Shown here: positions 5,607-58,990 of the stretch, piece after piece | Position numbering within the stretch: position 1 is the first letter of the stretch | Layout of the letters: the number at the start of each line of letters is the position of its first letter | From: Squalus acanthias | Taxonomy: Eukaryota | Assembly (NCBI GenBank): GCA_030390025.1 | Contig: CM059431.1 | Span: 159,342,001 to 159,406,000 of the forward strand | DNA: 64,000 bases | Direction: 5' to 3' | Translations under genes and position numbers: made by a program | Notes under the pieces: model-generated | Database searches by the model: none | Told to the model about the DNA's origin: nothing | The model's input: the letters and a program-made list of their open reading frames with translations, nothing else

Positions 5607-6162
5607 GGCCCGTATTTTCCACTGCCTACGGGTGCGACCGCGTACACACCCGTAGGCACTGGAAGAGAAAAAGTGAAAACCCGGAACTTACAATCTGCCA
5701 TGAATAATTCCCGGGAAAAGTGCATTCACGGGTAGAGAGTTGGGTTATTCACTCAACTACTGCCCAGCGAATGCCCGTGAAAATCGTCTGGCTGGTAAAA
5801 ACTGGCGTAAGGCATTCTGTTGACAGCATAAGTGTTGAAATAAATATTTTTTATAATTCAATTATTTAAACTTTAAAACACCAGTAAAATAAATTTAGGT
5901 TATTTTTAGCACATTTAAAACGTTTAAAATTATTTTTCAAAATAGTAAACATTTGTTTAAAATGTTTAATTAAATTGTATTTTAATTAAATTTAAATACG
6001 TAACTTTTTTTAATTATTTGGTATGTCAGTATGTTTTTTATGTCATCCACATTCATGCTTATGGGGATTCCGGTCGTGCAGAATCCCCATACGCATATAT
6101 TGGGATTCCCTTCTTTCAAAGGTTCGGCCGGCCCACGCGATACGTGGAATTCTGTGCATGTC
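5607..6162. mobile_element. Related MITE-like copy, interrupted by the CR1/ERV nest (appears to resume at ~23047)
   Basis: ggcccgtattttcc start, ccggaactt motif, AT-rich core and internal hairpin, as in 63089-63848. Confidence 0.55.
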
Positions 6163-6377
6163 ATAGAAATATAGAAGATAGGAGCAGGAGCAGGCCATTC
6201 AGTCCCTTGAGCCTGCTCCACCATTCAATGAGATCATGGCTGATCATTCAAATTCAGTACCCTGTCCCTGCCTTCTTCCCATATCGCTTGATCACTTTAG
6301 CTTTAAGAAATATATCCAACTCCTTCTTAAATATATTTAATGAATTGGCCTCTACTGCCTTCTGTGGTAGAGAATTC
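6163..6377 (-). mobile_element. 3' end of the CR1 that hosts the provirus (continues at 20497-20640 and ~21634-23046)
   Basis: catagaaatatagaagataggagcagg tail. The sequence is continuous across the TSD with 20497 onward. Confidence 0.88.
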
Positions 6378-8001
6378 TGTAAAGCTTCGCAATGATCGCG
6401 ATTCAAAATAACAAGAGAGAAGCAGATTCGTTTGATCAGTTTTATTAAACGAAATGCTGTCCTGATAATAAAGGACACAGAAGCCTGTAAAATGGCCGCC
6501 GCGCATCTTGGCAAAATCTTCCAGAAATACAGTGGGCAGACAAGATGGCGTCGAATAAACATTCAGTATAAGATTGGATCATACTCGGTAAACATGATAA
6601 AGACAGGATGCAACCCGTTTGCATTTGGAACAATAGCAAAGATATAAGTGCTGGAATTGTTTTCCTATGCACAGTAAGGACCATTCTACTGGGCAATTGA
6701 AGGCCCATCCAGACACATCAATGCACAAATACCCCCACGGCTCTACAATGAGAGAGACATTGACGGGTGATTAAGTCAGTATTCGGGAAGGCCCCAAAAC
6801 CAGTCAGGGAGACTCCTGGCTGGGTCAACAATGGGTAAAACATTAACGGATAGTTGGCTAGTTTCAGCAGCTACCGAAAGCCGTTAAAGAGAAGAATTGC
6901 CCCATGTTGGGCGTTTTGTGCGCCAATATTACACAAAGGACAAACATTAAGATTTGAGCGGGAGATAAGGGGACACAGCACTATAACTATAGAGAACAAA
7001 TGTCAATCGCTCTCTTTTGTTTCTCTTATCTCTCGGCGGACCCTTGCTGAAGCTCTTCCTTGGAGCTGGACTTTTGTGTTTCTCTGGACTTTGTTGACTC
7101 TTGCCTCTTAGCCGTACCGGTCGGTTATTCGAATGTTGGGTGGAGCTCAATCGGAACGAGCCGCCCCGACAAGGGCAAGTATCAGGGTACACCATCCCGA
7201 GTGTCGGTAAACGGTGTCTGGACCCGAAGGCCCGAAGAGACGAGACGAGAAGAAGACGAGAAGAATCCACGTGCCGCCACAGTCAGTAAACCCCGACGGC
7301 GGCCGAAAATATAAATAAAAAACTCTTCTTTGAGTTCGAACGACTAGAACCTGTATCGAGCACAGGAAGACTCTTCTTTGAATTTTACAAACGTTCCGAG
7401 TTCTGCCGAGTTCTTCATGACAACAGAGAGTCTGGCCTGCTTTTCGCAGCAGCGAAAGTAAACAAGTGGGGTGCAGAAGCCCTTCCAAACACATGACAGT
7501 CAGGCGCTGCAGCGAAACGAGCTGAGTGCCTCACTTTAAAAATCTCCGAAGTAACACGATTGGTGAGCATGTTTTCCGATCCTACAAATCTAGAGGAAGT
7601 GTAGGTATTGTTAAGGGAGTGTGGTTTTTAATAAGGTTAAGGTATAATGTGTTTCCCTTTTTACGATGTGCCGTGTGTTCTTCACTTCCATAGACCAAGC
7701 TTTATGAATGTATGTATACTTGTACTCTCGTTGATTTGCGCCTATGACATGTACTTCATGATTTTGGACGCTATGCAATAAAGATTTCCATTTCCTACTA
7801 TTCAACCGGCTCTATTTGAGTTTTCTCTGCATTACTGCTCCCTGCACCTAAGTCCAGTGTTAGAAACCGTAAGGGCGAGTGGGTCGAACCACTCACAGGT
7901 ACTTATTGCAAAAAGGCTGGCCGGAGACTAGAGCAAGCAGTAGTATTAGGCAACGAAGACCTAACCTCGCACCAGCACCGTCTGAGACACGCCCCCTTAC
8001 A
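6378..8001 (+). repeat. 5' LTR (1624 bp)
   Basis: TGTAA...TTACA terminal inverted repeat. Aligns end to end with 18874-20496. TATA-like TATAAATA at 7310 and AATAAA at 7777-7782. Confidence 0.96.
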
Positions 8002-8005
8002 GAAA

Positions 8006-9800
8006 ATGGCGACCGCGGCAGGACTCTAGCAGCAGGAGAGTAATGTTTTAGAACCTGGCTTGAATAGGCAAAATGTGATGGATGAGAGGGGAGCCGACTA
8101 TGTGTTTGGTAAGGTTAACTTAACCAAAAAGTGGATAAGTGACCTACTGATGGATAAGCGTCCGCTAGACGCCGCCATCAAATGGATAGGCAGTAAAGAG
8201 CATAAGAAGTCGGTAGAGAAAGCGGTCTGGCTGATGTACTACAAGAAGCAAGTCCAATTTTCGGGTCAGGTCATTGCAGCACAGGCAGCTCAGATCAGGG
8301 ATTTGGAAGTTGAGATGGAGGAAAAGGTCATGGGAGGACAGAAACTCATTGCATCATTGAATGCGTTACATCAGGAACGCCAAATAGTAGCCAACCACCA
8401 TGAGGCTAAAATTGATTACCTGGAATGTCAGGTCACGGAAGCGAAATTAAACGAGGGTAGGATTAGAGAACCGTGTATCCGCTTGGTTAGCCAAATAAAA
8501 GCCCAGGAAGAGAGCTTGAAGGGAGTTAGGGCGGCATATAAGATGGCCCTCGAGGATAGGCACGAGGGAGCCGACCACAGTGTTCGCCAGAAGGAGATAG
8601 GGAACCAAAGAGAGGCCCTCAATAAGGCAAACCGCTTGGTGTGTCTCATCAGCCCGTCAGCGAGCCAGCCACAGGTGGGTAGGGAATTCCCAAAATCCCT
8701 ACCAGAAAAAGCAGAAGAGGTATCTGCCACTATGCCCTCCGCGCCACCCAGCTATTCGGCAACCTGGGTAAGGGAGGAAGTGGTGGAAATAGAGAAAAAG
8801 GTTCCCGAGGTAGGACAATCCCCGGAGGTAGAGTCGAGACCGGGACCAATGTGTCCGCTCCGAGGTCACAAGAGAGGCCCGAATGCAGACAATGGGGAAG
8901 AGGGGGATAACCTGAACCAACTTGTATTGCCCCACAGCTCACAACAGCTGAGAGCAATGATTAGCCATGTACGGAAGCTGTCCGAGTCAGATGACCCTTC
9001 CGTACATTATAGAGAAGTAGAACAGACCGCAGCAATTAATGGCTGCGACGATGAGGAAAAGACCAAAATGTTGCTGTTCTCTTTAGATAGCTCGATCCTT
9101 CAGTGTCTCTCCGACGAGAGCAAGAAGGGAAATAAAACCTATGGGGAGTTACGGGACGAGGTCCTAGAAGTGTTAGGGGCGGATGACGAAGGTCCGTTCG
9201 TCAGATTGTGTCAGACCGTATAGATGGAGGGACAGACAGTGGCCAGTATACCAGCGTAGCTGCCCAGGTGCGCCAGGGCGCAACTACCTGGACGGTGCCG
9301 GGAAAGCTCATTGGCTCAGGTGCATGGTAGCCAACAGTTTGCCAGCCGTCAGGGAGCAGGCCAGAGCGTGGTTTGATCCCACTAACCCCGCCACAACGGA
9401 GGAGGCTGTCCTAAATCGACTCACCATATGGTATCGGAACACTAGGAGCACGGGAGCGCGTCCCCTTAAGGGAAAGGTTGATTTGGCAAGGACCGCAGCT
9501 CCGGCTCAGAAAGAGTGGCATCAGGAGGGAAATTGCGCCCCACAAACCAGTGGTGTTTGTTACGGGTGCGGGAAGACAGGTCACTGGCGTAAAAACTGCA
9601 GGAATCCTTGGAAAAACTCCAGGGACAAAGTTCCGCAGTCCGAACCCAAGCACCTGTCTCTGAGAAAGGAGCTGGTGTGTCTATCCATCCCGATGCGATA
9701 AAATCAATTTTGGGAGCCATGCGGTCCCTTATGATTTCGCAAGGAAGGGTGGCAGTCGCTACCGGCCCCACAGATGCCACAACCCCGTCCACCAGTACCC
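8006..9800 (+). pseudogene. gag: gag (coiled-coil N-terminus, PSAPPSY late domain, capsid-like region, single CCHC zinc knuckle); disrupted
   Basis: ORF 8060-9223 plus frameshifted 9183-9701. CYGCGKTGHWRKNC at 9558-9599 and PSAPPSY at 8735-8755. An in-frame ATG at 8006 is separated from the ORF by one TAG (8027-8029). The 3' boundary with pro is approximate. Confidence 0.85.
8007..8024 (+). promoter_or_regulatory. Primer-binding site complementary to the 3' end of tRNA-Arg(TCG)
   Basis: TGGCGACCGCGGCAGGAC(TC) lies 5 nt after the LTR. Its reverse complement, GAGTCCTGCCGCGGTCG-CCA, matches the 3' end of a vertebrate tRNA-Arg(TCG) as I recall it (not searched). Confidence 0.85.
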
Positions 9801-10080
9801 AATCACTAAATCCCGCACAGCCCGTTTACCTGTGTCTGCTCAGCTATGATGCGTGGAAAAGACCCCTGGTAGAGATGGAGGTAGAGAAGCAGAAGCGTAG
9901 TTATTTGTTGGACACGGGAGCTTCATGCACCGTGATCCATAAGGATAGCCCCTTTGACTCACCACTGTCTACCAAGGTCCATTCACATTAGCAGGGTTCA
10001 CGGGAAAAGAGCAGGCTGGCGCGTTCTCCATTCCGCTCTCCATTCATTTAGGAGCACTCCACACCACATAGAAGTGCATA

Positions 10081-11764
10081 GAAACATAGAAACATAGAAA
10101 ATAGGTACAGGAGTAGACCATTCGGTCCTTCGAGCCTGCACCGCCATTCAATGCGTTCATGGCTGAACATGCTACCTCAGTACCCCATTCCTGCTTTCTC
10201 GCCATACCCCTTGATCCCCTTAGTTGTGAGTGTTATATCTAACTCCCTTTTGAATATATTTAGCGAACTGGCCTCAACAACCTTCTGTGGAAGAGAATTC
10301 CATAGATTCACCACTCTCTGGGTGAAGAAGTTCCTCCTCAGCTCAGTCCTAAATGGCTTCCCCTTAATCCTTAGACTGTGACCCCTGGTTCTAGTTTTCC
10401 CTACCATTGGGAACATTCTGCCCGCATCTAATTTGTCTAAACCAGTCAGGATTTTAAATGTCTCTATAAGATCCCCCCTCATTCTTCTGAACTCCAGAGG
10501 ATACAAGTTCAGTTGACCCAATCTTTCTTGATATGTCAGTCCGGCCATCCCAGGAATCAATCTAGTGAACCTTCGCTGCACTCCCTCAATAGCAAGAATG
10601 TCCTTCCTTAAGTTAGGAGACCAAAACTGCGCACAATACTCCAGGTGTGGCCTCACCAAGGCCCTGTACAACTGTAGCATCACCTCCCTCCTCCTGTACT
10701 CAAATCCCCTTGCTATGAAGGCCATCATTCCGTTTGCTTTCTTGACTGCCTGCTGCACTTGCATTCCCACCTTCAGTGACTGATGTACCATGACGCCCAG
10801 GTCTCGTTGCAAGTCCCCTTTCCCTAATCTGCCACCATTCAGGTAATAGTCCGCCTCTCTATTTTTACCACCAAAGTGGATAACCTCACATTTAGCCACA
10901 TTGTACTTCATCTGCCATACATTTGCCCATTCACCCAACCTGTCCAAGTCACTCTGTAGCCTCCTAGCATCCTCCTCATTGTTCACACTGCCTCCCAATT
11001 TAGTGTCATCCGCAAATTTGGAGATATTACATTTAATCCCTTCGTCCAAATCATTAATATATAATGTAAACAGCTGGGGTCCCAGCACCGAACCCTGCGG
11101 TACCCCGCTGGTCACTGCCTGCCATTCTGAAAAGTACCCATTTACTCCTACTCTTTGTTTCCTGTGTGCCAACCAGTTCTCAATCCACGTCAACACATTA
11201 CCCCCAATCCCATGTGCTTTAACTTTGCTCACCAATCTCTTGTGTGGGACCTTGTCGAAGGCCTTCTGAAAGTCCAAATACACCACATCTACTGGTTCCC
11301 CCCTGTCCACCCTATTGGAAACATCCTCAAAAAATTCCAGAAGATTAGTCAAGCATGATTTCCCTTTCACAAATCCATGCTGACTTGGACCTATCATGTC
11401 GCCACTTTCCAAATGGTCTGTTATGACATCTTTAATAATTGCTTCCATCATTTTACCCACGACCGATGTCAGGCTGACCGGTCTATAATTCCCTGCTTTC
11501 TCCCTCCCTCCTTTTTTAAAAAGAGGGGTTACATTGGCCACCCTCCACTCCATCGGAACTGATCCAGAGTCTAAGGAATGTTGGAAAATGATCGTCAATG
11601 CATCCACTATTTCCAAGGCCACCTCCTTAAGTACTCTGGGATGCAGACCATCAGGCCCCGGGGATTTTTCAGCCTTCAGTCCCATCAATTTCCCCAATAC
11701 CTTTTCCCGACTAATAAGGATTTCCCTCAGCTCCTCCCTCTTACCAGATCCTCTGACCCCTTTT
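10081..11764 (-). mobile_element. Young 5'-truncated CR1 LINE inserted in the ERV protease; uninterrupted ORF2 RT C-terminal 506 aa
   Basis: ORF 10177-11697 (-) has YLDFQKAFDKV, GVPQGSVLGP, FADD and no stops. (ATAGAAAC)n tail at the left end. ATA is shared at both junctions and removal restores KCILMKW. Confidence 0.93.
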
Positions 11765-14603
11765 ATACTGATGAAATGGCAAGAGGGGGGTGGCAGAGGT
11801 ATCCTCGGATCGGATCTCCTAGCGGAACACGGGATCCTCGTGGACCTTAGGAATCACTGTCTCTGGGGAGCCAAGGGTGGAAAAGGCAAGGTAGTTGTAA
11901 TCCCAGGGAAGGAAGGAAAAGGGGCCCTGTGTACCATGAAGCCATCCGGAGGTTACGACTTTGGGCTTATGATCGCGGATGTCCCAACGGACATGCAAAC
12001 GTACGTGTCAGATAATATGCATGCGTTTGCAACCCACAAGTACGATTGTGGGAGGGTTATCGGGTTTGAGGTCAGCATAGCCGGGGATCCCATGACCCGG
12101 CCCCAAAGCAGTATAACTTCCCCAAAGAAGCAGAACCCGACATTGAGACAGCAATGTCCTCATTAGGGCAGCAGGGCATGTTGAGGCCGATAGCCACACA
12201 CGTGAACTCCCCATTATGGCCGGTAAGGAAGCCGGATAATTCGTGGAGGGCCACGGCGGACTACAGAGTCCTTAACAGTAACATCCCCGCCTGCGCTACC
12301 ACAGTAGCAGCAGTTGCTGACCTAATAGGGAGTATCCCAGCGTCCGCGATCACGTTCACGGTGCTGGATATTTCGAACGGTTTTTGGTCCATCTCGCTGC
12401 GGCGAGAGGACAAGTACAAGTTTGCCTTTACTTTCAAAGGACAACAGTAAACGTGGAACTGTTTGCCACAGGGATTCCACAACAGCCCCAGTATTTTCCA
12501 TCAGTGTATGGAAAGAAGTTTAAAGGTGTTTAGTCAGCCCAATCAGATAGTGCAGTACGTGGATGATTTGCTCCTGTTCACGGACTCAAGGGAGGAGCAT
12601 GGACCAATGCTCGCCGAGTTATAGGAGCTGCTAGGGAGAAAGGGTTTTAAAGTTAACCCTAAGAAAGCACGTATCGGTCAGCAGAAAGTAAAATTCCTGG
12701 TCTGATCATTCGCGCTGGGGAAAGAGCCATAGATAAGGTTAGGAGGGAGTCGGTGCAGGAGTTACCGATTCCCAACACCATAACGGGTGTGAGGTCCTTT
12801 CTGGGACTGACCGGTTACTGTAGAGACTTCATCGAGGACTATGCAGCCACAGCAACTCCGCTGCTCCGAAACCTCCATAAGGGAGTGGAGTGGTCTTGGG
12901 ACGAGGGTTCTCAGGCAGCGTTCGAGAAGTTAAAAAGGGATCTGCAGACCGCGCCAGCTTTAGGGGTGATAGATGGGGGGGAGGAGTTTTTCCTGGAGGT
13001 AGCTGCCAGCGGAGACAGCTTGAGCGCCGTGCTGCTCCAAGAGCGACCCGGCAAGCTGAGGCCGGTTGTCTATTCGTCCAGGGTGTTAACGGATGTGGAA
13101 AGGAGTTTTTGCAACTGCGAAAGGCATCTTTTAGCCACGCATTGGGCTGTGAAAAGATCAGCGATCTTCACAGGGCTCTCTCCCATCACTCTCCTCATCC
13201 ATCACACGCCAACCAAGATGCTTCTGGATGGGAGGAATCAGGATGGGACCGTAAGCAGCGCTCGTATTGCGCGCTTGACCCTTCTCCTTTCCCAGATGGA
13301 TCTTAGAGTGAGAGGTCTTTGCGAGCCCAGGCTCGCGGCCAACTTGGTATACCCCGGAACAGCCCACCAGTGTTCGGTGGAAGGGGTGTGGGAGGTCAAC
13401 ATAGGTTTGCGGGCCGGGATACATCCCACAGGTCGCGAGATTTATGTTGATGGTTCAAACACAGTGTCTGCTGGCGAACGATTTACAGGGTGTGGAGTTT
13501 ATGACCCTGCGGCAAACCTTGCCTTGGCAATTAAACTCCCCAGCACGATGAGCGAGCAGCAGGCTTAGCTGTCTGCGGTGGCGTACGTCGTTACCCACAC
13601 AGAAATCTTCCCTACCCCATACACGATTTGTTCGGACAGTATGTTTACGTGCATTTCGTGTATGGAATACCTGGCCATTTGGTCCCGCCGTGGCTACACC
13701 TCCGCAGACGGGCGGCCTTTAACGGTGAAGCCCTTGCTGGAAAAGATCCCAGCAGCAGTCGGGGAGGAAGGGGAGATTTTCATCCACAAGGTGAAGGCTC
13801 ACTCCTCCACAGAACCCCGCGGGGAGGGCAACCAGCAGGCGGATGCGCTAGCCAGGGAAGGTGCCCGTAACTGCATTTTCTGGGACACCTATGGACCCGG
13901 ACCCTTGGCAACGATCCAAGGCAGGGAAGGGAATCCCGGGAACACCAGGGTAGCACTGCCCCTAGACCTTAAGACCGTCCAGAACCAGGAACCCGCCCTA
14001 AAAGCAATTCTCAGAACGATTACTGAGGGCAAGTCGGTAGAGGGCCCGTACAGTACGGCAACCCTGTCCGTTAAAGAAGGCATGCTTTTCCGCGAGGAAT
14101 AGTGGATTGTGCTGCAGCAGCACAGGAGGGAATTCCTCCAGTTGGCTCATGAGGGGCCGGGGCAGGACACCCCGGGCCTGAGGTTACCTGGCAACGGGTA
14201 GAGCAGGCGGGATGGTGGCCGGGACTCAGGGAGCAGGTCCGCGAGTTCTGTGCAAGCTGTCTTGTGTGCGCTGCAAACAACCCAGACCCCCAGAAAAGGA
14301 AAGTGCTATTGGGGCACATCAGGAGGGTGGAGGGACCATGGCAGTCGATACAGTTCGATTACATAGGGCCCCTGCCCTACACCCAGGGAGGCTACAAATA
14401 CTGCCTCGTCCTGGTGGATGTGCTTTCCAATTGGGTAGAAGCCCTTCCCTGTAGAACAGCTACGGCGCTGGGTACTGCCAAGATCTTGGTCCGGGAAGTG
14501 TTCTCGCGGTGGGGACTCCCCCGTTTCGTGGAGTCAGACCAAGGGAGTCATTTCACCGGACAGGTGATGCAGAGCACCCTCACTCTTTTGGGCATTGAAG
14601 GGA

Positions 14604-14684
14604 AGCCATGATCTTATTGAATGGCGGAGCAGGCTCGAGGGGCCGATTGGCCTACTCCTGCTCCTATTTCTTATGTTCTTATGT
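14604..14684 (+). mobile_element. ~80-bp CR1 3'-end fragment inserted in the integrase core
   Basis: agccatgatcttattgaatggcggagcaggctcg...cctactcctgctcctatttcttatgttcttatgt matches the CR1 3' tails elsewhere (e.g. ~28826-28908). Confidence 0.88.
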
Positions 14685-16142
14685 AGCGCACAATCCCCAG
14701 TCATCAGAGATTGTTCAACGCATGAACCGGACCCTCAAGGAAAAACTGAGGAAAGAGACTATGAACTCGCCCCAAAAATGGGCGGAGGTTCTGCCTCTAG
14801 TCCTCATGGGGATTCGGGCCAGCCAGTCGAAGAGTACGGGGTATTGCCCGTACGAGGTGATGACTGGGAGGATCATGCGAACCCCCACCCATTTACTAGA
14901 CCCGGTGCTCACTGAGGATCAGCTCCAAGAGGTGAAACGGGACAAGTTTGTCCAGACCCTCTTGGAGCACCTGAAGCAGGATTACGAGCAGGCGGCTGGG
15001 AACATGGGAAGACAGCAACAGGGCAATCGCCTGTTGCTGGAACCCCGTAAGAAGCAGGAGTGGGAAGTCGGAAATCAGGTCATGTTTAGGAACTATGCCA
15101 GAGTAGGGAGTTTGGAACCGCTGTATATGGGACCCTACAGTATTGTAGATAAGGCGAGTCCCATGGTGTACGCAATAAAGGTATCCCGGCGCACGAAATG
15201 GTTCCACATTAACCAGTGCAAGTTGTATAAACCGGGTGCACAGGGGCCAACCACAGGGGCCAAACCTGCGAGTGGGGACTCTCAGCCCCGTGTAGAACCG
15301 CAGGGCACACAGGCCGGTAAAGCAGCCTGCTTGAGGGGAGAGGACATTCTGGAAAAGTGTCGGATCTTTTCTTGATGTTGGGATTCAGATGAGGAAGAGC
15401 TCGGAGAGCTCGACCAAGGTAGTGACCCAGTCGGAGAGGTGGTGGGTTCGGAGGACGGAGGTTCCGCCCTCGACCCAAGCATAGGGGAGATACGGATTGC
15501 GAGTGGAGTTCCACTTACTGGAGAGACAAGTAGGGTGGATTCGGAAACTGCAGATCCCGAGCCCAGGGGGGCGGAGCCAGGGTAGACAGATGCGGCGGCT
15601 GTGGTAGGACCACAGGCCGTGACGGTGGAAGTCTCGGTTCCCGGTCCGTCGGTCCTGGAAATCTTGCCCAAGGTAGCCCTCCGCAGGTCGAGTCGGACAC
15701 CCCAGCCCAGGAAGCTGTGGTCAAATCCCTCGTACACCTGCAGGCGTAAGTTCAAGGCAGCCCAGGGAGATCCCAGTCCCAGCGCAGCGGCGACAGGCTG
15801 CGGCAGATCAAAGGAAGGGGTCAGTGACGCCCAGCCACTGGGAAAAGCTCGTGGCAGCCTTCGCAGAATTTAGGTAGGCCGCCCTGGGAACGGGCGGCGC
15901 TGTACAGTTAAGTTTAGGTTAAGTCGAAGTTTATAGTGTTTTAAGTTTGTTAAGATTGTAGTTTAATTTTATAAGTAAATGTTGAAATGATGGGAGTTAG
16001 TGATAGGATTAGTTAAGGTCTATCCAGTATACATGTCTTTGTACGTGAGACGAGGTCAAGTGACCCGCTCACCCTTCACAAAAGCCAGAGACTCTTGGGA
16101 GGCTGGCAACATCATTTTATCTGATCACAGGAACCAGGAGAT

Positions 16143-18480
16143 ATGGAAAGGATTCTGATAGTGCTTGCAACGATCGGATATGGATTTACCTATCGTGGCC
16201 TCACCAAGGATGTCGTTGTGTTCGGTTGCACCGGGGACACGGCCCCCATCGCGACGGATGGGACCGGGGAGCGAAAGGCTGAGGAAACCGCCACTTATTT
16301 CCACAAGGGAAGGTGGCCGGGATGGCTGGGAACGAATTCGACGGAATACTCCAGCGCATCAGGGTTTGCGTACAAAAAGACTTCTTTACTGTGTCCCAGG
16401 GTGAGGATCGTTGCACCCAGAATCAGTGTCACCGTCGGCAAAAGGATTTGTTTGACGTGCAATGGGAAGGTCCCATTGAGCCGATGGTGGTGGTTACGGA
16501 AGTTAAGCAAGACTATGAGAAATTCCTCGGTCGAGTGGGAGCGATTGGGTAACAATACCCATCGGACAATTACAGGGACTAACGGACAATTGAAAGTCTG
16601 TTGGGACAAATGGTGGGAACCAGATGAGGGAATATATGTTTGTATGTGGGGATCGAAGTACGTTTGCCCCAAGGGTATATCCATATTTTTGCTACAACAG
16701 TGGCAGGATGACGGGAAAGGGATGAGGTGGGATGTCAGCACCAATGGGTTTGGAGCTCCATTCTCCCTGATCCCGGTAAACGCCATTGAACTCATCACGC
16801 GCCCATGCAAGTCTCCGCCCACGATTCCGGTGGCATTGGCTCAGGAGGATGGGTGCCCTAAAACCACTAAGGGGCCCGGGAATGGTCTGGTACTGGTGCC
16901 AACAGATCAGATACTATATCAAGGGGTACATTACGCGGTGGCTTCGGTGATTCTAAATCTCACCGAGGTGCATTTACCAGAGTGGTGTCCCAAAGAAATG
17001 GAACAATTGTACCAGGTCCTGTTAACAAACATGTTCAGGTAATTTTATGAGTTTGATTTTGCAGAGGTTGACAAAACAAGCTTATACACCACACCACACG
17101 AAGTTTTGGGTCAGGTGGGGAGACAAAGAAGGGGTTTTGTGAACGATGTGTTCACTGCTTTTAATACGGGAACATCTGTGGTCAACGCTCTAGACAATGT
17201 GGAGCTGCAGACCCAGATCAACGGTTTAAAATCATCCTCACAAACGAGAACAAGGTAGTAGGGTCTGAGTTACATGAGGACCAGCCCATGACACTAAACT
17301 TAAAAGAGATTATAGCAGAGCTGGAGAAGCATGCGAGAACGGTAAATGCCCTGATCAGGGAAGATCGAAATGCATCCGATCAAGCTGCGCAGAACGAGCT
17401 TTGCGTACTATACGGGGCGTGGTTACTGGGCGAGGGCCGCAGTAATTTGGAGGATTTAAAACAAGGTTTGGTCCCGTCCTGGATAAGTAACAAACACCTG
17501 CAAGCGCTCCACCCTTTTCAGAACGCATTAAGCCCGTGCCATCTCAGGCTAGCCTCAGAGGCATACCCAGTCCCAGTGGACTGCGGACGGTCAAATCACA
17601 CTATCATGGGGATAGTAGTACGGATGCCGGTGTTGGGAGACACAGCAAAGCCCGCCCCGGTGTACCGGGTGGAGAACATTGGTATCATTCAGGGGGGAGT
17701 CCACATTCGCTAAGCAGCGGTCCCACCTTACCTCATCCGCTGGGAGCAAACGATGACAGGTACCGACCTTTCGGGTTGTCGTGGCCGGGGAGCACACATC
17801 ATACTGTGTCCACAGCACTTGAATGCCTTTTTAACACCACAATGAGGGTTCAGAACGGCTGGCGCGAAGCCCATCAATTACACCATTGAAGGAATGACAC
17901 AAGATCATGTGCCGCCACAGGTGGCATACATAGGGGGTGGAACGTATTGCGTTACCACTGCAGCGCAACACTACCAGCATAGACAGCACAGCCGGTGTCC
18001 GGTGAGTGTCAGCAGTTTCTGTTTTAAACCCAGGGCTGAAGTTCAAGTGGCACAACAGCGAATTATCCCGATCCCTGAACCATCCACTTTTCACCTCACT
18101 GTAAAATAGAATTACACAGACTTGCAGCGAATCGTCGCGCATTTCGGATACATCATTCCCCCTCTCCCTGAACACCTCACCAAGATTTTAAAAGCCGTCA
18201 TGGTATCACAGAAACATTTTTACACCCTGGAACAAAAGACTGTAGAGATTGGGCAGAGATATTAGATTTAGTAATCCCACCGTGGTGGGATCTGTTCACT
18301 AATATTGAAGTCCCATCATGGATCAGGATAGCCTCCCACATTTTGGTAGTGTGTCAAGTCGTAATTGTAGTGTACCTAATGGTCGTACACTGCAAAAGAG
18401 GCAAACGCCTCACGAGTCAGGAGAACACAGAGGAGTGGAGAGAACATTATGTGCACGTGAACGAGGAAAGCACCGCGTAA
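16143..18480 (+). pseudogene. env: env: signal peptide, Ig-like domain, furin site RQRR, fusion peptide/heptad, Cys-rich F1-like ectodomain, TM and short tail; disrupted
   Basis: MERILIVLATIGYG signal follows a splice-acceptor-like ...ctgatcacag (16130). RQRR|GFVNDVFTAFNTGTSVVNALDNVELQTQINGLK starts at 17121. TM IASHILVVCQVVIVVYLMVVHC at ~18328-18393. Tail YVHV, stop TAA at 18478-18480. Confidence 0.88.
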
Positions 18481-18618
18481 ACGGCCAGGATGACGCCGCT
18501 CCATTTTACCATGTGTGTTTTTGTAATTGTTGTTAGTTATGAATATGTGTAACTAAGTTCGGAACTTTTGTATTTTTAAAATAGTTGGTGTGATAATTTT
18601 TTCCTTTTATAATAAAAC

Positions 18619-19011
18619 ATGCATATACAGGTGGTGCGAGAGGCATCGGACTTTTGCACCTGGAAGGCGTATACGCAGTGTAAGTTTAAAGGCAATACTG
18701 CCTACGATTTGTCCAAGATAGAACTTGTGTTTTCTCTGGGAAATGAGGACTGCATGGAAGCCATAGATAGTTTAAGAACCGGGAGTGTTTGGATGTGGAG
18801 AATCGGGATAATTGTGCTCACCACCTTTTTAATTGTTATGATAAGCGGAGTTATTCGCATCAACAGGAGGGACTGTAAAGTTTCGCAATTATCACGATTC
18901 AAAATAACAAGAGAGAAGCAGATTCGTTTGATCAGCTTTATTAAACGAAATGCTGTCCTGATAATAAAGAACACAGAAGCCTGTAAAATGGCCGCCGCGC
19001 ATCGTGGCTGA
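18619..19011 (+). CDS. Putative accessory ORF with one TM helix, crossing the PPT into U3 of the 3' LTR
   Basis: 130-aa ORF. Hydrophobic IGIIVLTTFLIVMISGVI is followed by basic RINRRDCK. A pyrimidine tract and CAG|G acceptor lie at 18630. The same frame is open further in the 5' LTR copy (6432-6647). Confidence 0.5.
   Translation: MHIQVVREASDFCTWKAYTQCKFKGNTAYDLSKIELVFSLGNEDCMEAIDSLRTGSVWMWRIGIIVLTTFLIVMISGVIRINRRDCKVSQLSRFKITREKQIRLISFIKRNAVLIIKNTEACKMAAAHRG
18862..18873 (+). promoter_or_regulatory. Polypurine tract (short, imperfect)
   Basis: AACAGGAGGGAC immediately precedes the TG of the 3' LTR. Confidence 0.7.
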
Positions 19012-20496
19012 AGCTTCCAGAAATACAGTGCGCAGACAAGATGGCGTTGAATAAACATTCAGTATAAGATTGGATCATGCTCGGTAAACACTGATAAAGA
19101 CAGAATGCAACCCGTTTGCATTTGGAACAATAGCAAAGATATAAGTGCTGGAATCGTTTTCCTATGCACAGTAAGGACCATTGTACTGGGCAATTGAATG
19201 CCCATCCAGACACATCAATACACAAATACTCCCACGGCTCTACAATGAGAGTAAAATTGACGGGTGATTAAGTCAGTATTCGGGGAGGCCCCAAAACCAG
19301 TCAGGGAGACTCCTGGCTGGGTCAACAATGGGGAAAACATTAACGGATAGTTGGCCAGTTTCAGGTTCTACCGAAACCCGTTAAAGAGAAGAATCGCCCC
19401 ATGCTGGGAGTTTTGTGCACCAATATTACACAAAGGACAAACATTAAGATTTGAGCGGGAGATAAGGGGACACAGCACTATAACTATAGATAACAATTGT
19501 CCATCGCTCTCTTTTTTTCTCTTATCTCTCGGCGGACCCTTGCTGAAGCTCTTCCTTGGAACTGGACTTTTGTGTTTCTCTGGACTTTGTTGACTCTTGA
19601 CTCTTAGCCGTACTGGTCGGTTATTCGAATTTTGGGTGGAGCTCAATCGGAACGAGACGCCCCAACAAGGGCAAGTAACGGGGTACACCATCCCGAGTGT
19701 CGGTAAACGGTGTCTGTACCCGGAGGCCCGAAGAGACGAGACGAGAAGAAGACGAGAAGAATCCACGTGCCGCCACGGTCAGTAAACCCCGACCGCGCCC
19801 GAAAATATAAATAAAAAACTCTTCTTTGAGTTCTACCGACTACAACCTGTATCGAGCACAGGAAGACTCATCTTTGAATTTTACAAACGTTCCGAGTTCT
19901 GCCGAGTTCCTCATGACAACAGAGAGTCTGGCCTGCTTTTCGCAGCAGCGAAAGTAAACAAGTGGGGTGCAGAAGCCCTTCCAAACACGTGACAGTCAGG
20001 CGCTGCAGCGAAACGAGCTGAGTGCCTCACTTTAAAAATCTCCGAAGTAACACGAGTGGTGAGCATGTTTTCCGATCCTACAAATCTAGACGTAGTGTAG
20101 GTATTGTTAAGGGAGGTAGGTTTTTAATAAGGTTAAGGTATAATGTCTTCGCGTTTTTAGGATGTGCCATGTGTTCATCATTTCCATAGACCAAGCTTTA
20201 TGAATGTATGTATACTTTTACTCTCGTTGATTTGCGCCTATGACATGTACTTCATGAATTTGGATGCTATGCAATAAAGATTTCCATTTCGTACTATTCA
20301 TCCGGGTTTATTTGAGTTTTCTCTCCATTACTGCTCCCTGCACCTAAGTCCAGTGTTAGAACAGTAAGGGCGAGTGGGTCGAACCACTCGCAACTGCTTA
20401 TTGCAAAAAGGCTGGCCGGAGACCAGAGAAAACAATAGTATTAGGCAACGAAGGCCTAACCTCGCACCAGCACCGTCTGAGACACGCCCCCTTACA
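18874..20496 (+). repeat. 3' LTR (1623 bp)
   Basis: Copy of the 5' LTR, preceded by the purine-rich AACAGGAGGGAC and followed by the ATTC TSD. Confidence 0.96.
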
Positions 20497-28400: not shown

Positions 28401-28908
28401 AAGAATGAGAGGCGATCTTATTGAAACATATTAGATTGTGAAGGGGCTTGATCGGGTGGATGCGGTAAGGATTCTCCCAAGGATGGGTGAAACTAGAAAT
28501 AGGGGTGCATAATCTTAGAATAAGGGGCTGCTCTTTCAATACTGAGATGAGGAGAAACTTCTTCACTCAGAGGGTAGTAGGCCTGTGTAAATTGCTGCCC
28601 CAGGAAGCTGTGGAAGCTACATCATTAAATAAATTTAAAACAGAAATAGACAGTTTCCTAGAAGTAAAGGGAATTAGGGGTTACGGGGAGCGGGCAGGAC
28701 ATTGGACATGAGGCTGAGTTCGGATTGGTCAAGGCCCTGTGGCTGGCAGAGCGGGCCCAGGTGCTGAGTGGCCGGGTCCTGATCCTACTTCTTGTGTTCT
28801 TTAGGTTTGTGGTTAGGATCAGATCAGCCATTATCTTATTGAATGGCGGAGCAGGCTCGATGGGCTGATTGGCCTACTCCTGCTCCTATTTCTTATGTTC
28901 TTATGTTC
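25401..28908 (+). mobile_element. Long CR1 copy (ORF1 esterase end, APE endonuclease, RT, 3' tail), decayed
   Basis: HIGTNDI; LNARRIRNK...AITETWL; VYRPPN; MGDF; NYRPVSLTS; FADD; 3' (TTCTTATG)n tail. Confidence 0.92.
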
Positions 28909-28929
28909 TGAAAAGTTAACGGTTCGCTG

Positions 28930-31900
28930 AGCCTCTGAAGACCTAATATCCCAGGGTAATCTGAAACATCACAGGCTCAATAGCTCAGTGCACTCTGACC
29001 ATCTACAGTCTCAATATCCCAGAGTATTTGACACTAAATGCCCAGTTGCCCACGGTTCTCTGATCCTCCGATTTCCCCAGGGTACTCTGCCCCTCTATAG
29101 GCCCTGCAGCCCCGGGTGCTCTGATCATCTAAAGGCCCAATAGCCCAGGGTACTTTGACACTAAAAACCCAGTAGCCCAGGGTTCCCTGATGCTCTGATT
29201 TTCCCATGGGACTCTGCCCCTCTATAGAGCCAACCGCCTGGGTACTTTGATCCTGTAAAGGCCCAATAGCCCAGACATAATTGGGCCGCTACTGACAGAA
29301 TAGCCCAGGGAAATTTGTCCTTCAATATGGTCAATAACAAAGCGTACTTGGATCATCTAAATTCTCAATAGCCCAGGTACTCTGACCCTATTATTGCCAC
29401 AGGACGCTGACTCGTTATAGTTAAAATATCCCAGGAAACACTGACCATCTAAATGCCAATAGCCTAGGGCACACTGACCCTCCACAGACCAAATATCCCA
29501 GGGTACTCTGCCACTCTATAGGCCCAACAGCCCGGGGTACTTTGATCCTCTGAAGGCCAAATAACCCAGGGTAGTTTGGACCTCAAATAACACAATAGCC
29601 CATGGAATTTTGACCCACTAAAGGTCCAATAATCAAGCGTAATTTGATCCTCTAAATACCCAATTTCCCAGGTACTCTGGCTGTATTATTGCCAGAGGAC
29701 GCGGACTCTTTATATATAAAATAGCACAGGAAAATCTTACCATCAAAAGGCCAATAGCCCAGGGCACACAAACCATTCGCAGACCAAATCTCCCAGGGTA
29801 CTCTGCTCCTCTAAATGCTGAATACTGCATAATGCTGGGACCCACCGTTGATTCAATAGTCCAGGTTACTTTGACCCTTTCCGTAGCCGAGTGTAATCTG
29901 ACTCTTTACGAGGCCAACAGCTCAGGTACGCTGATTTTCTGCAGGCTCACTAGCTGACGGATATCTCATCCACAGTTTCGTCCAGGCTATTCTGAAACTC
30001 TACAGACTCTATAGCCCAGCGTACGCTGAATACCTGCAGGACCAATAGCTCAGAGTACACTGACACTCTACAGTCTCAATAGCCAAGCTGATATAACCCT
30101 TTACTTGGCATATTGCCCAGTTACTATGACCCTCTGTCTAGGCCAAGGTACATTGACCCGATACAGACCCAATAGCCCAGCGTGCTCTGTAGCTTTTCAG
30201 TCCCAATAGCCAGGCTACTCTCAGAGTTTAAAACGTCAATAGTCCAGGGTACTTTGACCCTCTACAGAATCAAAAGCGCAGGAAGTCTGACCCTCTATAG
30301 ATTTCAGCATCGCTGTTGTTTTGAGCCTCTCCAGACTCAGTGGTGCAGGTACTCTAGCCATCTGCACGTTAACTAGCCAAGTTTTTTCTGACCTGTTTTA
30401 TAGGTCAGTGTACTCTGGTCTTTTAGAGATTACACTGATTGAATCTCTGAATTCATCTCAGGTTCTCTGATATTCCACAGGCTCAAAGCCTATTTTTCCA
30501 GATACTCTGAACTAAACGCCCGATATCCCATCGTAATCTTATCTTCAGTATAGCCCAGGTTACTCTAATCCTCTGCGTAGCCGAGGGTACCCTGACATAC
30601 TACTGGATCAATATCCCAATGTACACTGACACTCTGCAGGCCCATTCTTCCAGGGTACTTTGAGCCTCCATAGACCCAAGAGTCCACAATATCTGTCGCT
30701 CGACAGACCCAATAGCGCAAAGCATTCTGAAGTTTTGTAGGCCCTAACATCCTTGTACTTTGACCGGCTACAAATGGAAATGCGCAGGATGCTCTGACCA
30801 TCTAAAGACTCAATGGCCCACTTATTCCGACCATAAACAGATTCCATCGTCTTGGGTAGTCCGACAATCTACGCTATCAACTTACCCTAGCTCTCTACAG
30901 ACTCAATAGCCCAAGAACTCTGACCCACTAAATGCCCGATAGCCCATTGTACACAAACCCTCCAAAGATTCAATAGCACAGGGGCACTCTAACCCTCTAC
31001 CTAGCCCAGGTTGCACTGACACTCTGCTGGCCAATAACCTAGGGTGCTCTTAACTTCTGCATAGCTCAGCGTACTCTGACATTCTACAGGCCCTATATGT
31101 CAAAGATATCTGACCCTTTGCAAGCCAAATAGTTCAATACTCTGACTCTGAGGCTGGTCATTGTATATATTTTAGCTGGAGATAGACAGATTTTGAACGT
31201 TAACGGAGTCAACGGTTATGGGGTGCGGGCAGGGAAGTGGAGTTGAGGCCAAGATCAGATTAGCCATGATCTTATTGAATGGCGGAGCAGGCTCGAATGG
31301 TCAGCTGGCCTACTCCTACTCCTATTTCTTATGTTCTAATGTTCTTTTTACATGTTCAATTGCTGTGGGAACTCATCTCCTCCAAATGCCCATATGTCCA
31401 AGGGTCACAGACGATCTAAGCTACCAATATCTCAGTGTTATCTTAATTTTTGTAAAGCCCTGGGTACTCTGACACGCTGTATAGTCAAGGGTACTCTGAA
31501 CCTCTGATGGCCCATTGTTCCCAGGGAGGTCTGAACGTTTAAATGCCCAGTATCCCAGGGCACTCTGACCCTCTTAAGTGCGGTATTCCCAGGGTGCCCT
31601 GAGCCACTGTAGACCCAATATCCAGAGTATTCTGACCCTCTCCAGGCCCAATAGAGCAAAGTACTCTGAACAATTGTAGGCCCAAAAGCCGCCGGTACTT
31701 TGAACGTCTGCAAGGCAAATATCCCAGGACATTCTGAACTAACATATTCTAATCATTTAGAGACTCAATAGCCCAATGTTCTCCGACACTCTACACGGCC
31801 CAGTTTACCCTAGCCCTCTACAGATTCAGTTGCCCAGGAAATCTGACCGTCTACAGATGCAATGGCCCAGGGTACTATTACCCGCTACAGATTGCTTAGG

Positions 31901-57574: not shown

Positions 57575-58990
57575 CCAGACAAGCCAATAGCCCAGGATAC
57601 TCTAACCCTTGCATATCCAGTGCCTCAGGGTACTCTGACCATCCACATGCCCATTGGCCAGGGAATCTTATCCTCTACATAGCCCGGGGTACTCTAACCC
57701 TAAGCATTCCCAGTAGCCATGGATATGCTGAGTCGATGCCTAGCCCAAGGTACTCTGATCGACCCAAGACCCAATAGCCCAGGGAATGCTGACATTCTAT
57801 TGGCCCAATATCCAGGGTGCTCTGAGCCACTACAGTCCCAATTGCACAGGAATCTCTGACACTCTACGGGCCCAATAGCAGATGTTAATCGGAACCTCTG
57901 CAGGCCCAACAGCACAGAGCATTCTGACCCTTTACAGGCCCAATAGCAGAAGATACTCTGACCTTCTGTATTGCCCAGGGCAGGCTGTCCCTCTGCAGGA
58001 GCAATAGCCCAGGACGACTGAACCACTGATTAGCTCAGGCTGGTCTGACTCTCTATACAGCCCAGTAGCCAAAGGGTGTCCTCTATATACCCCAGAATGC
58101 TTTTGCACTCTTCATAGCCTAGTGTACCCTGAAATATTGCAGGACCAATACAGAGGAGGCAATTTCGCCCATCGTGCCTGTGCCAGCTCTTCTGTCGAAC
58201 TATCCAATTAGTAGTACACCCCTTTTCTTTCATCATAGCCCTGAAATTGCTTTCCTTCATGTATTGTTTCCAATTTTCTTTTGAATGTTACTGTTCAGTC
58301 TTCATCCTCCACCCTTTCAAGCAATGAATTCCAGTTCACTCTCTGTCCAGTAGCTGAGGGTACTCTGAACCTTAGCATTGCCCATTGCACGTTGGCGCTC
58401 TGATCCTCCTTTACACACTCAATATCCCAGAGTACTCTGAGTCTCTACTGCCCCAACAGTTCGTGATATTCTGAAGAACTACAGCCTCAATTTCCCAGGG
58501 AACTCCGACACAGTTCATGCGCAAAAGCCAAGGGAATTCTGACCCACTACATAGCCAAAGGTAGTCTGAGAATATACAGTCCTAATAGCAAAAGTAATCT
58601 GAACCTCTATATAACCCAGGGCACTCTCATCCTCCACAGATCCAATTGCCCCGGGGAAATCTGACACTCTGCAGATTCAATAGCTCAGGGTATGCTATCC
58701 CTCTTTATAGCCCAGGGAACTCTGAACCTTTACAGGCCCAATAGACCAGTGAACTCTTAGCCTCTTCAGGCCAATATACCAGTGTATTTTTTTCCCTTTT
58801 TATACCCAAGGTACTATTAACCTCTACATATCATCACAAGGTAATCTGACACTCTACATAGCACATGGTACTCTCGCCCTCCGCAAAACACAGAGCAAGC
58901 TTTGCATCTGCCTCGCCCAATAGCCGAGAGTACTCTGAGTCTCGGCAGGTACAATTTCGCAGGGAATGGTGACACAATTCAGCCTCATTT
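57575..58990. repeat. Second block of the ~34-bp minisatellite, interrupted by a CR1 tail at ~58146-58340
   Basis: Same aatagcccagggtactctga motif and orientation as 28930-32100. Confidence 0.85.

Follow-up and report, generated by a model that had tools for sequence, protein, structure and literature searches.

A broken env gene of an abundant, probably cartilaginous-fish endogenous retrovirus, with a predicted paramyxovirus/pneumovirus F-type fold and a likely immunoglobulin-type head

Results

The stretch of DNA analysed here (the window, 64,000 nucleotides of Squalus acanthias, contig CM059431.1) carries a 14.1-kb provirus with the order long terminal repeat (LTR)-gag-pro-pol-env-LTR. An earlier note had described its env gene as coding for an F-protein-type fusogen and had let it start at 16860. 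The gene in fact begins at an ATG at 16143, 330 codons ahead of the furin site, and the later start therefore misses an N-terminal head. The parts of env are the following (HR, heptad repeat; aa, amino acids).

16143..16205, plus strand: env start and likely signal peptide; the ATG is common to the natural 783-aa open copies, and hydrophobicity suggests the signal role
16392..16670, plus strand: likely immunoglobulin (Ig)-fold domain at the head, with Cys...Trp...DxGxYxC; a candidate for attachment
16854..17120, plus strand: F2-like core part, a long strand pair and then an HRC-like helix; stop at 17040; alignment to F begins at model residue 238-245
17121..17132, plus strand: furin-type site by motif, RQRR, kept in 18 of 20 copies
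17133..17460, plus strand: stretch resembling a fusion peptide, and a long HRA-like helix; the frame changes near 17250
17460..18105, plus strand: F1-like subunit, Cys-rich beta domains I/II; interrupted by stop codons at 17711 and 17843
18107..18327, plus strand: linker, HRB-like helix and the PPWW motif; broken by a stop at 18107 and by a change of frame near 18260; predicted local distance difference test score (pLDDT) below 50 over most of it
18328..18480, plus strand: transmembrane (TM) anchor and cytoplasmic tail with the Yxx-hydrophobic motif YVHV; stop at 18478

All 12 motifs named in the earlier note were located, spread over three frames: RQRR (17121), GFVNDVFTAFNTGTSVVNAL (17133) and LQTQINGLK (17205) in the first; VRMPVL (17618), VYRVENIG (17660), DLSGC (17765), ILCP (17801), GTYCV (17939), RCPV (17993) and FCF (18017) in the second; PPWW (18277) and YVHV (18448) in the third. 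From the end of RQRR to the stop at 18478 we counted 448 codons, where about 450 had been given, and a hydrophobic TM segment (18328-18393, Kyte-Doolittle 2.5) precedes the YVHV tail as described. The CX6CC/immunosuppressive-domain motif had been called missing, and no CX6CC occurs in the three forward frames of 16101-18520. The proposed fusion-peptide-like sequence is present, but it is weakly hydrophobic, with the four highest-scoring 19-residue windows of its frame lying elsewhere, and the Phe of GFVND is found in one of the 20 copies compared, namely the present one. Predicted cleavage at the basic site ahead of the fusion peptide would leave a membrane-anchored part of about 400-450 aa; in homologues the post-cleavage part has 434-465 aa. 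With its four in-frame stops and two frame changes, the present copy is damaged and is unable to make the protein.

Structure searches were run with an AlphaFold2 (AF2) monomer model of a natural unbroken copy, and all three returned F-type proteins, as the fusogen proposal had anticipated. In Foldseek/PDB the top matches were the F proteins of human parainfluenza virus 3 (hPIV3, 1ZTM), respiratory syncytial virus (RSV, 3RKI), Newcastle disease virus (NDV, 3MAW) and henipavirus. Foldseek/BFVD returned lispivirus, baculovirus and paramyxovirus F-type proteins, together with the Envs of walleye dermal sarcoma virus (WDSV) and walleye epidermal hyperplasia virus 1 (WEHV-1) at E ~2e-9; the top match there, A0A384ZVF2, is an unnamed protein. 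In VIA, the top nine rows were F proteins and foamy Env. These alignments cover model residues 245-651, Cys-rich beta domains included, with 250-290 residues at a root-mean-square deviation (rmsd) of 5.6-6.5, whereas decoys align over just 80-140 helical residues. In the model, the nested core of domains I-III that is common to paramyxovirus and pneumovirus F lies at residues 245-651, and residues ~238-650 of Env are thus predicted to take the F fold. Pfam gave no match above cut-off to PF00523 or PF12259 (relatives reached E 0.036 and 0.001 at best), and Pfam on the three env pieces, with stops as X, as well as phmmer/PDB on the middle piece gave nothing save Ig_3 at E 0.13. ESM Atlas provided leads only: an unnamed chordate cluster (0.84) and, second, a cluster with Baculo_F on 19% of its members (0.75).

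The family profile was also searched against PDB and aligned pairwise by hhalign with retroviral Envs. The WDSV record was assigned in part by its reverse transcriptase (RT) motifs, and is presumably that virus. As snakehead retrovirus (SnRV) we used the IMG/VR record whose RT matches the SnRV row in dataset S2 of PMC7947760. The best PDB match was foamy Env (8RM1, E 5e-4; also 2.4e-3), with no paramyxovirus or pneumovirus F at E<=10. By hhalign, the probabilities were 92.9% for foamy Env, 96.3% for WDSV Env over the F1-like part, and 92.7% over 332 columns for SnRV Env, where the F2-like strand, the furin site and the Cys-rich domains are colinear; homology to SnRV Env is thus detected by profile, while plain BLASTP between the two was not significant. 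Cys and Gly positions line up with foamy, WDSV and SnRV Env. A better match to a gamma-type or a foamy Env had been named in the earlier note as a refutation of its proposal. The gamma-type control (PF00429) fails to align (0.4%), and the Pfam search gave no PF00429 match. Foamy Env is indeed the best PDB profile match, yet that condition was badly posed: foamy Env itself has an F core according to PMC11468914, so that the match agrees with the F reading. Env gave no match to PF03408 (foamy Env), while the foamy control scored 1688 bits.

The nearest named proteins are from skate (79%) and sawshark (61-75%), and remoter homologues occur in Mustelus, Chiloscyllium, frogs and coelacanth. The same genome also holds remoter F-type Env families, a Chiloscyllium protein having 83 matches there at 33-81% identity. 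In one of these families a natural frame of 784 aa scores E 0.036 against PF00523. In database gene models, pieces of the present Env are joined with Niban, zinc-finger, cadherin and F-box proteins; these fusions are likely annotation artefacts.

The head shows a B-strand Cys, a C-strand Trp and DxGxYxC (DEGIYVCMW). Every match listed in its fold search was an Ig domain, although scores were weak and the model of low confidence, and its profile found a single chance-level match among PDB sequences; an Ig fold is likely on the model. The profile did not match the N-terminal half of SnRV Env (probability 1%). That half (6131-7660 of the IMG/VR record) has two Y-x-C-M-W motifs that resemble DEGIYVCMW. 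Homologous F cores bear unlike N-terminal heads, some Ig-like (one UniRef label, one V-set at E 0.045), others short and Cys-rich, which suggests that heads have been swapped among them.

The family is abundant in the 3.7-Gb genome. An env query gave 6922 candidates, and all 150 that were scored had 94-100% identity; with an RT query, 144 of 144 scored matches had 98-100%. More than 20 env matches among those listed have frames open over the full gene. Among the 20 best-matching env copies, variants present in at least two copies comprised 217 synonymous and 83 nonsynonymous changes (pN/pS 0.11), while pN/pS was 0.40 for singletons and 0.16 in the head; four copies of a sister family gave omega 0.06-0.09. 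The low values for shared variants and sister copies indicate that Env was constrained during the spread of the family, which would fit spread by reinfection. Of the six env-open copies examined, four keep gag and env but have almost no pol (9750-15255 here), which would fit complementation in trans; such copies make up a non-autonomous subfamily. Where frames were listed for them, a frame of 250-360 codons without Pfam match spans the deletion.

The RT, read from a natural copy whose pol frame is open, lies inside Retroviridae and outside the lokiretrovirus clade. It carries LDISNGFWSI / LPQGFHNSPSIFHQ, as does SnRV, and also YVDD; the lokiretrovirus RT rows compared from dataset S2 of PMC7947760 read [CL]PFGY.N. 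In a 30-row maximum-likelihood tree (LG+G4, UFBoot, gypsy-rooted, 30 of the 49 rows of the second quick tree), it groups with non-loki (canonical) retroviruses (98.5/98), within a shark-frog-coelacanth group (95.4/64). SnRV occupies a neighbouring branch (85.6/72) with weak deep nodes, and this tree gave no supported link of the family to SnRV, foamy viruses or ERV-L. Two quick trees agree. In all three, two eel proteins assigned by motif stand for the lokiretroviruses, the published rows being compared by eye, and the foamy-like endogenous retroviruses (ERVs) of fish and sharks are not among the named rows. RT identity is 44% to SnRV, 33-37% to foamy RTs and 51-53% to the closest frog and coelacanth rows. 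The family thus falls outside both the foamy RT clade of Spumaretrovirinae and, by motifs and all three trees, the lokiretroviruses. SnRV-like ERVs were reported in elephant shark and coelacanth (PMC4422223; PMC4977317), and the best label is "SnRV-like or class III in a loose sense".

The remaining parts of the provirus include the retroviral features of LTRs, a tRNA primer-binding site (PBS), a target duplication, and a tether as well as a second RNase H.

6378..8001, plus strand: 5' LTR, 1624 nt, TG...CA
8007..8024, plus strand: PBS for tRNA-Arg(TCG), complement of the 3' end of host tRNA genes
8030..9701, plus strand: gag, broken, with a CCHC knuckle (PF00098, E 5e-4)
9593..15870, plus strand: pro-pol, broken, with protease, RT, tether RNase H, second RNase H and integrase (PF00077, PF00078, PF17919, PF00075, PF17921, PF00665)
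10080..11764, minus strand: long interspersed element (LINE) with its own RT, antisense in pol and foreign to the virus; missing from both pol-bearing copies compared
18874..20496, plus strand: 3' LTR, 1623 nt

At 1.6 kb each, the LTRs are long; they differ at 86 positions against 1536 matches (Kimura two-parameter distance 0.055), with transversions (49) outnumbering transitions (37). Their divergence corresponds to about 12 My at 2.2e-9, or about 125 My at 2.2e-10 (rate assumed in PMC4422223). The provirus landed inside a LINE with a 4-nt target duplication, ATTC. At all three loci scanned, the PBS complement fits host genes called tRNA-Arg(tcg) by ARAGORN. The integrase gene carries a 77-nt repeat fragment (14606-14682) that is missing from two sibling copies. 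A 130-codon open reading frame at 18619-19011 was ruled out as a conserved gene: it is open over 130 codons only in the present copy, reaches 33-71 codons in 13 others with an aligned start (five not covered, one start unaligned), and its shared changes are 12 nonsynonymous to 4 synonymous. Elsewhere in the window, diverged arrays of 34-nt units lie at 28900-31750 and 57800-58520. Tandem arrays at C26:38.99-42.2 Mb consist of a ~1623-nt unit with tRNA-Arg(TCG) and tRNA-Ser(GCT) genes (422 exact matches genome-wide); BLAST of this unit against the equally long LTR gave no similarity.

Discussion

Most probably, the window holds a broken env copy of an abundant, likely cartilaginous-fish ERV, whose Env has a predicted paramyxovirus/pneumovirus-F fold like that of foamy Env and a likely Ig-type N-terminal head. 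Alternatively, env might have been captured fairly recently from a fish paramyxovirus, a lispivirus or a similar negative-strand virus instead of being inherited within retroviruses. In Foldseek, foamy Env indeed ranks below paramyxovirus F and below lispivirus/fish-filovirus glycoproteins; however, identity to these amounts to 8-16%, the sequence profile detects only retroviral Envs (and in PDB no paramyxovirus or pneumovirus F at E<=10), and relatives of Env are known from sharks and skates as well as from frogs and coelacanth, as for the pol relatives. We hence regard such a capture as unlikely.

Somewhat less plausible still is a shark endogenous foamy virus with simply a foamy Env. The PDB profile and hhalign matches, the lowest rmsd in VIA, which belongs to foamy Env, and the YVDD motif would agree with this, but the missing PF03408 match and the RT, closer to SnRV and the frog and coelacanth rows and not grouping with foamy viruses, do not. 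Moreover, Gag here has a CCHC knuckle, which foamy Gag is not known to carry. The extra domain is N-terminal to the core here, whereas the foamy receptor-binding domain (RBD) is inserted within it (PMC11468914). We also give little credit to a resemblance generic to class I fusogens, i.e., a long helix plus beta sheet, since the alignments extend through the Cys-rich beta domains far beyond the reach of decoys, and Cys and Gly positions agree with those of three retroviral Envs. Least credible is a lokiretrovirus, the first in cartilaginous fish, with the known F-like Env of that group: although dual RNase H is present here as well as an F-like Env that bears an RxxR site, both described for lokiretroviruses in PMC7947760, and their detection there in 0/6 chondrichthyan genomes leaves a gap for it, dual RNase H is common to retroviruses generally, F-like Env is not exclusive to lokiretroviruses either, the RT speaks against it, and the one lokiretrovirus Env compared (Loki-Xtr) is headless, with a short pre-furin part and a strongly hydrophobic fusion peptide.

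For an F-type Env with an Ig-type head, class I fusogen biology would suggest the following course. The precursor would enter the endoplasmic reticulum by its signal peptide and trimerise, and furin would cut after RQRR into a ~310-aa part with head and F2-like portion and a ~450-aa F1-like subunit. The head might bind a cell-surface partner, standing in for the separate paramyxovirus attachment protein. A trigger, either receptor or endosomal pH, would then extend HRA, the fusion peptide would insert, and HRB would zip back to form a six-helix bundle. Reinfection that depended on Env is the likely route by which the family spread, and pol-less gag and env copies would have been mobilised in trans.

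F-like Envs have been published for lokiretroviruses (PMC7947760), foamy viruses (PMC11468914) and errantiviruses (10.1101/2023.10.26.564294), and the idea is therefore less new than the earlier note implied. Added here are the RT placement and the direct Env links to SnRV, WDSV and foamy viruses with a negative control. In a literature search of incomplete coverage we found no paper in which the Env of SnRV, of WDSV/WEHV or of shark class III-like elements is termed F-like, a point that may nevertheless be in print, and no description of an Ig-headed F-type Env. A 2023 review (PMC9967133) sets the walleye Env apart as distinct, lacking gamma-type hallmarks, and treats it as a recent oddity. 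Related Envs in two fish retroviruses suggest that such an envelope is old and widespread among retroviruses. Wang and Han (PMC7947760) do not decide between four scenarios for how retroviral env arose, and they find the lokiretrovirus Env without overall similarity to other retroviral Envs. We may tentatively speculate, while holding it less than even, that an F-type fusogen was the ancestral retroviral Env, kept in foamy viruses, lokiretroviruses, SnRV, exogenous walleye epsilonretroviruses and the shark-frog-coelacanth lineage, with a receptor-binding module added per lineage (here a host-derived N-terminal Ig) and with gamma- and beta-type surface/transmembrane Envs as later replacements or reductions. 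If one F-type family does join foamy, SnRV, walleye and shark/frog/coelacanth Envs, a single early acquisition becomes testable. The present family also supplies an Ig-headed F architecture and a large number of recent copies that are under purifying selection. Surveys with syncytin-like queries (10.64898/2026.05.06.723177) would likely overlook these Envs.

Among known systems, the F proteins of paramyxoviruses, pneumoviruses and baculoviruses and the errantivirus ENV share with the shark Env the predicted order of F2, furin site, fusion peptide, HRA, Cys-rich beta domains, HRB and TM. Unlike these, at 8-16% identity and without a Pfam match, the shark Env has a 330-residue pre-furin part with a head and a weakly hydrophobic fusion peptide. 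Lokiretroviruses are likewise vertebrate LTR elements with dual RNase H and an F-like Env with RxxR, but they differ in RT clade, in the missing head of the Env compared and in its hydrophobic fusion peptide. SnRV is the closest named exogenous virus by RT and shares RT motifs, a TGGCGA-type PBS and a colinear Env core, and SnRV-like ERVs include CmiERV lineage I of elephant shark (PMC4422223); its Env frame of 1134 aa, however, is much extended at the N-terminus, and this extended part fails to align with the head described here. WDSV and WEHV-1, which resemble the family in Env structure and profile, have Envs of about 1230-1320 aa and a class I pol, and the post-cleavage part alone aligns. 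Foamy Env (8RM0/8RM1; PMC11468914) is likewise retroviral, with a paramyxovirus/pneumovirus-F core, a large post-cleavage subunit and a built-in extra domain in place of a separate attachment protein. It belongs to a different RT lineage, comprises ~990 aa as opposed to 783 aa, and has a long leader where the shark Env probably has an ordinary signal peptide. Its large RBD of novel fold lies inside the core, whereas here a small, likely Ig fold stands ahead of it.
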